Shown here: positions 13,453 through 14,241 of the stretch, piece by piece
Position numbering within the stretch: the stretch's first letter is position 1
How the letters are laid out: each line of letters opens with the position of its first letter
Origin: Candidatus Rhabdochlamydia sp.
Lineage (GTDB): Bacteria; Chlamydiota; Chlamydiia; Chlamydiales; Rhabdochlamydiaceae
NCBI GenBank assembly: GCA_035949155.1
Contig: DASZIJ010000012.1
Span: 1 to 47,605, forward strand
Direction of reading: 5' to 3'
Length of the DNA stretch: 47,605 nucleotides
The notes under the pieces: generated by a model
The model's database searches: none
What the model was told of the DNA's origin: nothing
Seen by the model: only the letters and a program-made list of their open reading frames with translations
Program-made: the position numbers and the translations under genes

Positions 13453-14241
13453 TTACATGTCTCTTGGCGCATTTCTATCGCGAGGGTTTAGCGTCCCATT
13501 ATTGCGATCTCTCATCATATTGTTTCTGCTGTCTCTGTAATTACCTCTATTGTCTCTATAATTACCATCATCCATCATCATCGTGTTGTCATCACAGCAC
13601 TTTGGTGTTCTTTTGCAGCATGTTTTTGGTTTACAGCACTTTGGTTTCTCAGTTTGCATAAGTCTTGTAGGCTCACAGCATCCATCTGTAGTACAAGATG
13701 GCTCTCTTGTAGGTACACAGCACCCTTCTGTAGTGCAAGCTGGTTGTCTTGTAGGTTCACAAGGTTTGCAGCAAGGTTTAGGACACTTAGGCTTGCAACA
13801 CTTAGGCTTAGGGCAGCATGGGGCCTTAGGCTTAGGGCAGCATTTAGGTTTGCAACACTTAGGCTTAGGGCAGCATTTAGGTTTGCAGCACTTAGGCTTA
13901 GGGCAACATACAGGTTTCGGAGCAGGAGCGCAACAGCCATCTCCGTTCGTCATGCCGTTGTTATCATCATCTGTTCTTTTTCTTCCCCAACGTCTACTAT
14001 TATTATCGTATCTGTCATCTTTATTATATACATCGTCTCTCTGCATCATGTCTGCTTGCAGTTGCTTAGCATTACGCGCTCCAACTAGATCGCTTGTATC
14101 AGCAAACTCTTTGGAACTGTTTTCTTGGGATATATACCCTTCTTTTTCAAACCCATCATTCTGAGCAGGAGAGTGATCTCGAGCCATACTAAATGTTGTT
14201 TGCAACAAAGCCAATCCAATGGCTAATAAATACTTCTTCAT
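13453..14241 (-). CDS. Secreted cysteine-rich repeat protein
   Basis: Sec signal MKKYLLAIGLALLQTTFSMA, GGGGG RBS-like run upstream, 32 Cys (14 CC pairs) in a central K/P-rich block. Confidence 0.85.
   Translation of the reverse strand: MKKYLLAIGLALLQTTFSMARDHSPAQNDGFEKEGYISQENSSKEFADTSDLVGARNAKQLQADMMQRDDVYNKDDRYDNNSRRWGRKRTDDDNNGMTNGDGCCAPAPKPVCCPKPKCCKPKCCPKPKCCKPKCCPKPKAPCCPKPKCCKPKCPKPCCKPCEPTRQPACTTEGCCVPTREPSCTTDGCCEPTRLMQTEKPKCCKPKTCCKRTPKCCDDNTMMMDDGNYRDNRGNYRDSRNNMMRDRNNGTLNPRDRNAPRDM
13770..13912 (-). repeat. Coding tandem repeats, 33-bp unit (CCPKPKCCKPK)
   Basis: On the + strand the unit CACTTAGGCTTAGGGCAGCATTTAGGTTTGCAr recurs with variants. Confidence 0.9.

Follow-up and report, generated by a model that had tools for sequence, protein, structure and literature searches.

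The locus and its gene product

The window analysed here is the whole stretch of 47,605 nucleotides from Candidatus Rhabdochlamydia sp., and on its reverse strand, between uvrD and namZ, lies a gene for a protein of 262 residues with 32 cysteines and 14 CC pairs, hereafter the 32-Cys protein (Table 1). All of the Cys residues are confined to residues 103-216, and residues 1-102 are Cys-free. The signal peptide was called by rule (KK, a hydrophobic core, and S-M-A before residue 21), and S18 and A20 within it are invariant in 14 of 14 aligned sequences. Because the first Cys is residue 103, the protein has no lipobox. A sequence-only reading of this DNA had described a signal peptide without a lipobox Cys; the lack of any Cys before residue 103 stands, and the signal peptide itself is a rule-based prediction. 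The basic motif at residues 82-89 is a possible processing or polyanion-binding site. Upstream of the gene, including the 31-nt block, no sigma-70 consensus was found, and a sigma-28 pattern had no match there.

Table 1. Features of the 32-Cys gene, its neighbours and two thiol enzymes encoded elsewhere in the genome (G000)
Feature	Position	Strand	Basis
32-Cys Cys/Pro/Lys repeat protein gene	13453..14241	-	ORF, 8/8 genus orthologues, dN/dS 0.13
Signal peptide (residues 1-20) predicted for Sec/SPase I, without lipobox	14182..14241	-	sequence rule; dN/dS 0.035
D/N/R-rich N-flank, residues 21-102, likely disordered	13936..14181	-	composition; dN/dS 0.13 (residues 21-99)
Basic motif S-R/K-R-W-G-R-K-R/K, residues 82-89	13975..13998	-	S82 and R84-K88 invariant in 14/14
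Core of residues 103-216 with all 32 Cys and the 14 CC; net charge about +20	13594..13935	-	composition; Cys conservation
33-bp (11-aa) tandem repeat, 2.8 copies	13825..13917	-	TRF; copy number differs between orthologues
42-bp (14-aa) tandem repeat, 2.4 copies	13663..13761	-	TRF; 2/14 aligned sequences one copy shorter
D/N/R/M-rich C-flank, residues 217-262	13456..13593	-	most variable part, dN/dS 0.28; missing in G048 protein
Purine-rich RBS-like run 5' of ATG	14248..14252	-	conserved in 9/9 upstream regions
31-nt upstream block, candidate promoter/operator	14274..14304	-	invariant in 9/9 genomes
Short hairpin spanning stop codon, weak terminator-like site	13441..13461	-	3 sites found vs 1.1 expected in shuffles
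uvrD/pcrA helicase, downstream neighbour	11212..13323	-	Pfam; synteny 8/8
namZ exo-beta-N-acetylmuramidase, divergent neighbour	14464..15687	+	Pfam; synteny 8/8
DsbB-family protein	G000:C62:861-1388 (L150)	-	kept genus-wide without DsbA-type partner
Signal-bearing CPPC thioredoxin	G000:C70:5965-6387 (L165:1966-2388)	+	directly after thioredoxin-reductase-like gene; 5/5 genus genomes

The core of the protein (114 residues) consists of 32 Cys, 26 Pro and 23 Lys in 81 of its positions (28% Cys and 23% Pro), and aromatic residues are absent from it. Being rich in Lys and Pro, it yields few tryptic peptides of practical use. The open reading frame, the Cys and CC counts, a core of about 115 residues and the D/N/R-rich flanks had all been claimed beforehand, and they were borne out, as was a 14-residue duplication, which corresponds to the 42-bp repeat unit in 2.4 copies. 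The CC spacings are 9, 6, 5, 6, 5, 8, 6, 9, 17, 14, 14, 6 and 7, and a 6+5 period of 11 residues is held by only five of the 14 pairs (residues 112-134); the 14 pairs said to follow an 11-residue period are thus correct in number, but not in regularity. GNYRD is present twice in the flanks of the window copy, as had been noted, although a doubled NYRD/NYKD unit occurs in just four of the 14 aligned sequences.

Within its own genome (1.63 Mb), the 32-Cys ORF ranks first in Cys density among 3,944 ORFs of at least 50 residues, with 20 Cys in its best 60-residue window compared to 15 for the runner-up. Its 14 CC pairs compare with at most three in the other ORFs among those listed, and its Cys content of 13.5% with 8% for the next-best of 248 ORFs passing a crude signal-peptide filter. 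AlphaFold2 gave no confident fold (pLDDT 41.3, pTM 0.11). No family was matched in Pfam (E 0.1) or NCBIfam, a PDB profile search gave no match, and searches of the ESM Atlas with the whole protein and with the core alone retrieved no structure.

Conservation, expression and distribution

Orthologues are present in all eight other Ca. Rhabdochlamydia genomes, and in nine of nine, the present genome included, the gene is flanked by uvrD and namZ; one of them is deposited at NCBI as "hypothetical protein RHABOEDO_000184" (WP_215217403.1). The nine genes of the genus encode 224-283 residues with 25-38 Cys and 9-17 CC pairs. Internal stops are absent from the frame in 9/9 orthologues, compared to 3-47 stops per frame in the other five, and all length changes among the orthologues are in frame. 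The pooled pairwise dN/dS relative to the window copy is 0.13, made up of 0.035 for the signal peptide, 0.13 for the N-flank, 0.135 for the core from residue 144 and 0.28 for the C-flank. Beyond residue 143, the Cys columns contain 138 aligned codons; Cys is retained in 136, 35 of them via a synonymous change. These data identify the 32-Cys ORF as a genuine gene on which purifying selection acts. A repeat number that varies while the chemistry stays constant would suit a structural polymer.

Four of 24 listed sequencing runs (X1, X2, X3 and X5) were compared with the window. Contigs from two runs recorded as metatranscriptomes cover the gene (X1, 157 nt with no mismatches; X5, 257 nt with 28 mismatches), and at a separately chosen control locus of 20 kb the two long mismatch-free contigs of X1 sit on a MOMP-like porin gene. 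The X1 and X5 contigs agree with transcription of the 32-Cys gene, although they do not give strand, level or timing and may stem from DNA carry-over. In two other runs, X2 and X3, which were taken to be RNA by guess, the contigs on the gene are deep (57 and 87) and uvrD and namZ are uncovered; both contigs start at 14246, inside an A-run. Their depth was left out as evidence because these runs had been found using the 32-Cys gene itself and contig depth cannot rank genes.

Several other genes of the window deserve mention. A DXD-type glycosyltransferase (9381-10433, forward strand), on which an X5 contig also lies, matches the TcdA/TcdB catalytic domain at residues 76-115 only. A protein of 271 residues (43023-43838, forward strand) resembles a RING finger in its N-terminal part (PF13639, E 5e-4, sub-threshold) and is a candidate eukaryote-like effector. 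Low-complexity S/G/K/P-rich and EPIYE-repeat proteins (18369-18899 and 8310-9284, both forward) look effector-like and have no family match above the cut-off; two X3 contigs run across 18255-18660. A DDE transposase fragment (7779-8234, forward) adjoins an ankyrin-repeat protein (5989-7293, forward). In the segment 14464-17799 (forward), namZ is placed directly 5' of groES-groEL, an order likewise seen in many other genera of the family.

The 32-Cys gene is almost restricted to the genus. A profile built from 14 sequences and run against 129 genomes of the family matched the nine genus genomes and one of the 120 others (G048), and a core-only search of 401 genomes of the phylum matched solely in the genus. 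At 26 of 26 loci from other genera, the 1.5-kb flanks of namZ contain no 32-Cys gene. A profile search of 1.84 billion representatives gave four matches, all to the 32-Cys family or its fragments, and another large protein search gave six, all to the same family, although HMMER composition filters may conceal repeat-only relatives. The description of the protein as lineage-specific therefore holds for 9/9 genus genomes, with the reservation that one of 120 other family genomes also has it. A match in G019 (E 1e-8) was rejected as an orthologue, being a MOMP-like porin with a Cys-rich extension.

The G048 protein (L174:1050-1532, reverse strand; G048:C36) has 160 residues, 28 Cys, a signal-like start and a D/N/M/G flank, and has an exact repeat stretch of 28 residues in common with the 32-Cys protein. 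Its flank aligns with the N-flank at a score of 63, compared to 37 for the reversed sequence, and one of 1000 shuffles was as good. Because the flank alignment beats 999 of 1000 shuffles and its own reverse, the two proteins are probably homologous. The G048 protein has neither the basic motif nor the C-flank, and its locus is not syntenic. Shortly downstream of the G048 gene comes a porin-like gene, and the neighbourhood also includes two genes with an inverse-autotransporter beta-domain and one of the mitochondrial-carrier family.

OmcA, OmcB and thiol enzymes in the lineage

Searches with PF03503 and PF03504 are too insensitive for the present question, and PF03503 is uninformative for OmcA, having missed three of three environmental OmcA-type proteins as well; own profiles were used instead. 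A profile from five OmcB proteins matched 136 of 400 scored genomes of the phylum (one genome was unscored), and it matched none of 89 family genomes, none of eight genus genomes, and nothing in the present genome. A profile from nine OmcA-type lipoproteins (A3) detected two of two controls and found no match in the present genome or in three genus genomes. Matches on contig C85 in an OmcB tblastn search were rejected, as they lie on the antisense strand of a gene for a Gly-rich, autotransporter-like protein, in a frame rich in Pro, and not in OmcB. The protein of that gene (L166:328-3999, forward strand; G000:C85) is longer than 1,200 residues, and the antisense frame is a spurious Pro-rich ORF. 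OmcA and OmcB were not retrieved in R. helvetica, for whose membrane it was suggested that it "might not be stabilized" by means of protein cross-links, though the EB walls of the genus are five-layered (Pillonel et al., 2019; PMC6490308). Families with neither OmcB nor the repeat word of the core (see below) also exist (f5, 0/69; f23, 0/35; f37, 0/17). Since these have neither system, and since 119 of the 120 other family genomes are without the 32-Cys protein, the protein is no obligatory replacement of OmcB.

A DsbA-type protein (PF13462) was found in 0/9 genus genomes, compared to 13/90 family genomes and 3/3 OmcB-bearing controls, and tblastn of the present genome with six DsbA-type proteins reached a best E of just 0.014. 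A DsbB-family gene is present in this genome, in 5/5 genus genomes and in 51/90 family genomes. The CPPC thioredoxin listed in Table 1 is the only exported-looking thiol enzyme found, and its role may be reducing. Chlamydia has both DsbA and DsbB, and the Cys proteins of the chlamydial envelope are in reduced form in RBs and become oxidised late in the cycle (PMC4217174).

Possible function of the 32-Cys protein

The reading that we favour, and regard as somewhat probable, is that the 32-Cys protein is exported by Sec without lipidation and, as a disordered polymer, builds up a disulfide mesh in the EB envelope of Rhabdochlamydia. After export by Sec, cleavage by SPase I behind Ala20 would yield a soluble, disordered periplasmic chain of 27 kDa, whose Pro/Lys spacers would hold it extended, so that the CC pairs would bond neighbouring chains instead of closing a folded domain. 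Oxidation would take place late in the cycle or on release, with no canonical DsbA, via the DsbB-family protein and the exported thioredoxin-fold protein or spontaneously. The mesh might be held in place by disulfides with N-terminal Cys residues of MOMP-like porins, and by the attraction of its +20 charge to anionic envelope polymers. It would add a dense layer to the five-layered wall, and reduction after entry would undo it.

A disulfide mesh had already been put forward in the sequence-only reading; it is strengthened by the lack of detectable OmcA and OmcB in the lineage together with selection on the Cys positions, and weakened by the absence of a DsbA-type oxidase from the genus and of a lipid or membrane anchor from the protein. 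Replication of R. porcellionis in Sf9 cells is described as proceeding with no visible inclusion, and bead beating as counterproductive (PMC10231146); neither the inclusion-free growth nor the bead-beating result argues for a wall that is tough and oxidised. Which genes underlie the rod shape and the five-layered EBs was left to be determined in a comparative study (Halter et al., 2022; PMC9723776), and Table S3 of that source lists no Cys-rich protein and has two entries given as NA, either of which could belong to the 32-Cys family. No description of the 32-Cys protein was found in the full-text literature, including the accessible parts of PMC5033963 and PMC5826181 (subscription papers and the R. 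helvetica supplements aside).

Other functions have to be weighed against such a mesh. The layout recalls a prepropeptide, with a signal followed by a pro-like flank that is close to neutral in charge, and then by a multibasic motif and a cationic Cys-rich part, and the basic motif is nearly invariant in 14/14 sequences; R-X-X-R and G-K/R-R are furin-type and amidation-type cleavage motifs, respectively. The protein might then be secreted to the cell surface or into a host compartment, and cleavage at this motif would free a cationic module, stabilised by disulfides, that serves as an adhesin or acts on host membranes. Such processing seems unlikely to us, in that conservation of the whole N-flank (dN/dS 0.13) is about equal to that of the motif, which would not be expected of a disposable pro-region, the motif is missing from the probable G048 homologue, and a Cys number free to range from 25 to 38 in a chain with no fold (pLDDT 41) is unlike a peptide with a defined disulfide framework. 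That the frame is a spurious or non-functional product of tandem DNA repeats, as low complexity and the lack of a family match might suggest, is hardly credible; a dN/dS of 0.13, a stop-free frame in 9/9 genomes and in-frame length changes refute it at the gene level.

Two further alternatives make use of free thiols, and both draw on the fact that no DsbA was found. A core with 28% Cys, CC and CxxC motifs and no aromatics would be expected of an exported metallothionein-like chelator of Cu, Zn or Cd that protects the bacterium in metal-rich arthropod tissues, and the woodlouse hepatopancreas stores copper. Metallothioneins are cytoplasmic and have no signal peptides. A metal-binding protein was the other option of the sequence-only reading. 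The export signal, the variable repeat number, the 23% Pro of the core, the lack of a metallothionein family match, a location between uvrD and namZ that has neither a metal regulator nor an efflux gene alongside, and the use of the same repeat word by envelope lipoproteins make such a chelator improbable. On the other hand, the exported-looking CPPC thioredoxin encoded after a thioredoxin-reductase-like gene in 5/5 genus genomes could serve a non-structural periplasmic thiol buffer or sacrificial antioxidant that cycles with this thioredoxin-fold protein; the fixed Pro/Lys spacing and the conserved flanks are unneeded by a buffer and no precedent was found in searches, so we give this function very little weight. 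A protein of 94 residues encoded elsewhere in the genome (G000:C95:5638-5922, reverse strand) has a 10-Cys C-terminal tail with CxC repeats and makes a more metallothionein-like candidate than the 32-Cys protein; its N-terminus is CsbD-like.

The disulfide mesh can be extended to a longer course of events, which we put forward tentatively and consider rather unlikely as a whole. The family would have lost omcAB and mostly DsbA, and Rhabdochlamydia would then have rebuilt a disulfide wall from a single anchorless, intrinsically disordered CC-Pro-Lys polymer that sets without DsbA, giving the extra layer of the five-layered, rod-shaped EB. CC-x-P would be a portable wall module of the PVC bacteria, present in OmcA, at the N-termini of OmcB and of porins, and as a protein of its own in Rhabdochlamydia and planctomycetes, as a bacterial counterpart of keratin-associated proteins.

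The 32-Cys gene is present in all genus genomes searched and nearly absent elsewhere in the family, and no other OmcA-like sequence was found in the genome. The protein is a specific and testable candidate for a component of the unexplained five-layered wall, in a genus with a culturable species (R. porcellionis). If the mesh exists, chlamydiae that had lost the omcAB operon invented envelope cross-linking a second time, and this cross-linking does not depend on DsbA. The short repeat sequence could also model a redox-setting protein material.

Comparison with known systems

Keratin-associated and SPRR proteins contain CC-x-P-x pentapeptide repeats in disordered, cross-linked matrices, and the sequence-only reading had likened the composition of the 32-Cys protein to these or to metallothioneins. 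These animal proteins are eukaryotic and cytoplasmic, and Keratin_B2 and Cornifin have no matches in the 32-Cys protein at a Pfam E of 0.1; the likeness is an analogy only. The resemblance to metallothioneins is limited to the core (32 Cys in 114 residues, CC and CxxC motifs, no aromatics), and the length of 262 residues and the conserved signal-like N-terminus are unlike them.

Two planctomycete genomes encode signal-bearing, non-lipoprotein CC-K-P-K repeat proteins (L086:2818-3207 and L087:1440-2171, both forward strand), and look-alikes with CC-K-P-K repeats are found on several unassigned high-GC metagenome contigs (L152-L156). Six of these proteins (L086, L087, L152, L153, L155 and L156) have 25-52 Cys and are possibly an undescribed family of wall proteins; two of three planctomycete-type look-alikes scanned have sub-threshold matches to Keratin_B2. 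L087 and the 32-Cys protein have an exact match of 16 residues, and their flanks differ. In planctomycetes, Cys-rich YTV proteins are the leading component of the cell-wall proteome (PMC8567305). The 32-Cys protein differs from them, having no YTV Pfam match and no YTV tripeptide.

MOMP-like porins (PF05150; L010, L126 and L129) resemble the 32-Cys protein in having a non-lipoprotein signal, a polar stretch and a Cys/Pro/Lys repeat, but the 32-Cys protein has no beta-barrel ending in Phe, and BLASTP against L010 gave an E of 0.29. Among 49 MOMP-like ORFs of the family, which were drawn from the 30 best-scoring loci and are not a random sample, nine have at least five Cys per 40 residues N-terminally, some with CC-P-P-K-P repeats; the MOMP-like proteins of the present genome have 5-11 Cys. 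MOMP-like porins with OmcA-like Cys/Pro/Lys N-terminal extensions (L120, L126, L129 and L133) occur in genera without omcAB, and such porins are a possible second route of envelope cross-linking. OmcB is exported and Cys-rich, as is predicted of the Cys-rich 32-Cys protein with regard to export, and environmental OmcBs start with a Cys/Pro repeat. It differs in having no DUF11 (PF01345) or Ig-like domains (OmcB itself, as a control, matches DUF11 at 2e-42), half the size (OmcB has about 550 residues) and no confident fold.

OmcA is closest. A DNA pattern for the tandem P[K/R/Q]CC word is found in 11 of 401 genomes, namely the nine of the genus and G029 and G115, where it lies inside OmcA-type lipoproteins upstream of omcB; a reversed control pattern gave one match each in two genomes. 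In unfiltered tblastn of the present genome with OmcA-type queries, the best 40 matches all fall on the 32-Cys gene, and small lipoproteins upstream of omcB (30 loci) often have 5-mers in common with its core. Export is common to OmcA and, by prediction, the 32-Cys protein; both have CC-Pro-Lys repeat words with exact stretches of up to nine residues and a proposed role in cross-linking, and profile-profile comparison gave a probability of 94.8% over 27 columns. In 46 comparisons with OmcA and MOMP extensions, most scores beat residue shuffles, and reversed sequences score about equally, so that the resemblance to OmcA and to the porin extensions is largely compositional and does not establish descent. 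OmcA is a lipoprotein (PMC2811131). The 32-Cys protein, in contrast, has no lipobox, 262 residues where OmcA-type proteins mostly have 45-130 (a size 2-5 times theirs), 14 CC pairs compared to 1-10, and long polar flanks, and its gene is not beside omcB but between uvrD and namZ. The claim that it matches neither OmcA nor OmcB in architecture stands for the whole protein, but not for the core, whose repeat word also serves the OmcA lipoproteins of environmental chlamydiae, and on account of this common word the closest analogue is chlamydial OmcA, not the keratin-associated proteins or metallothioneins.

By the features compared here, the 32-Cys protein lies outside the OmcA, OmcB, MOMP-like, metallothionein, keratin-associated and YTV families. 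Its repeat chemistry is already known from chlamydiae, and the free-standing protein is a variant of it, which, judging from the sequence, most likely works like OmcA.
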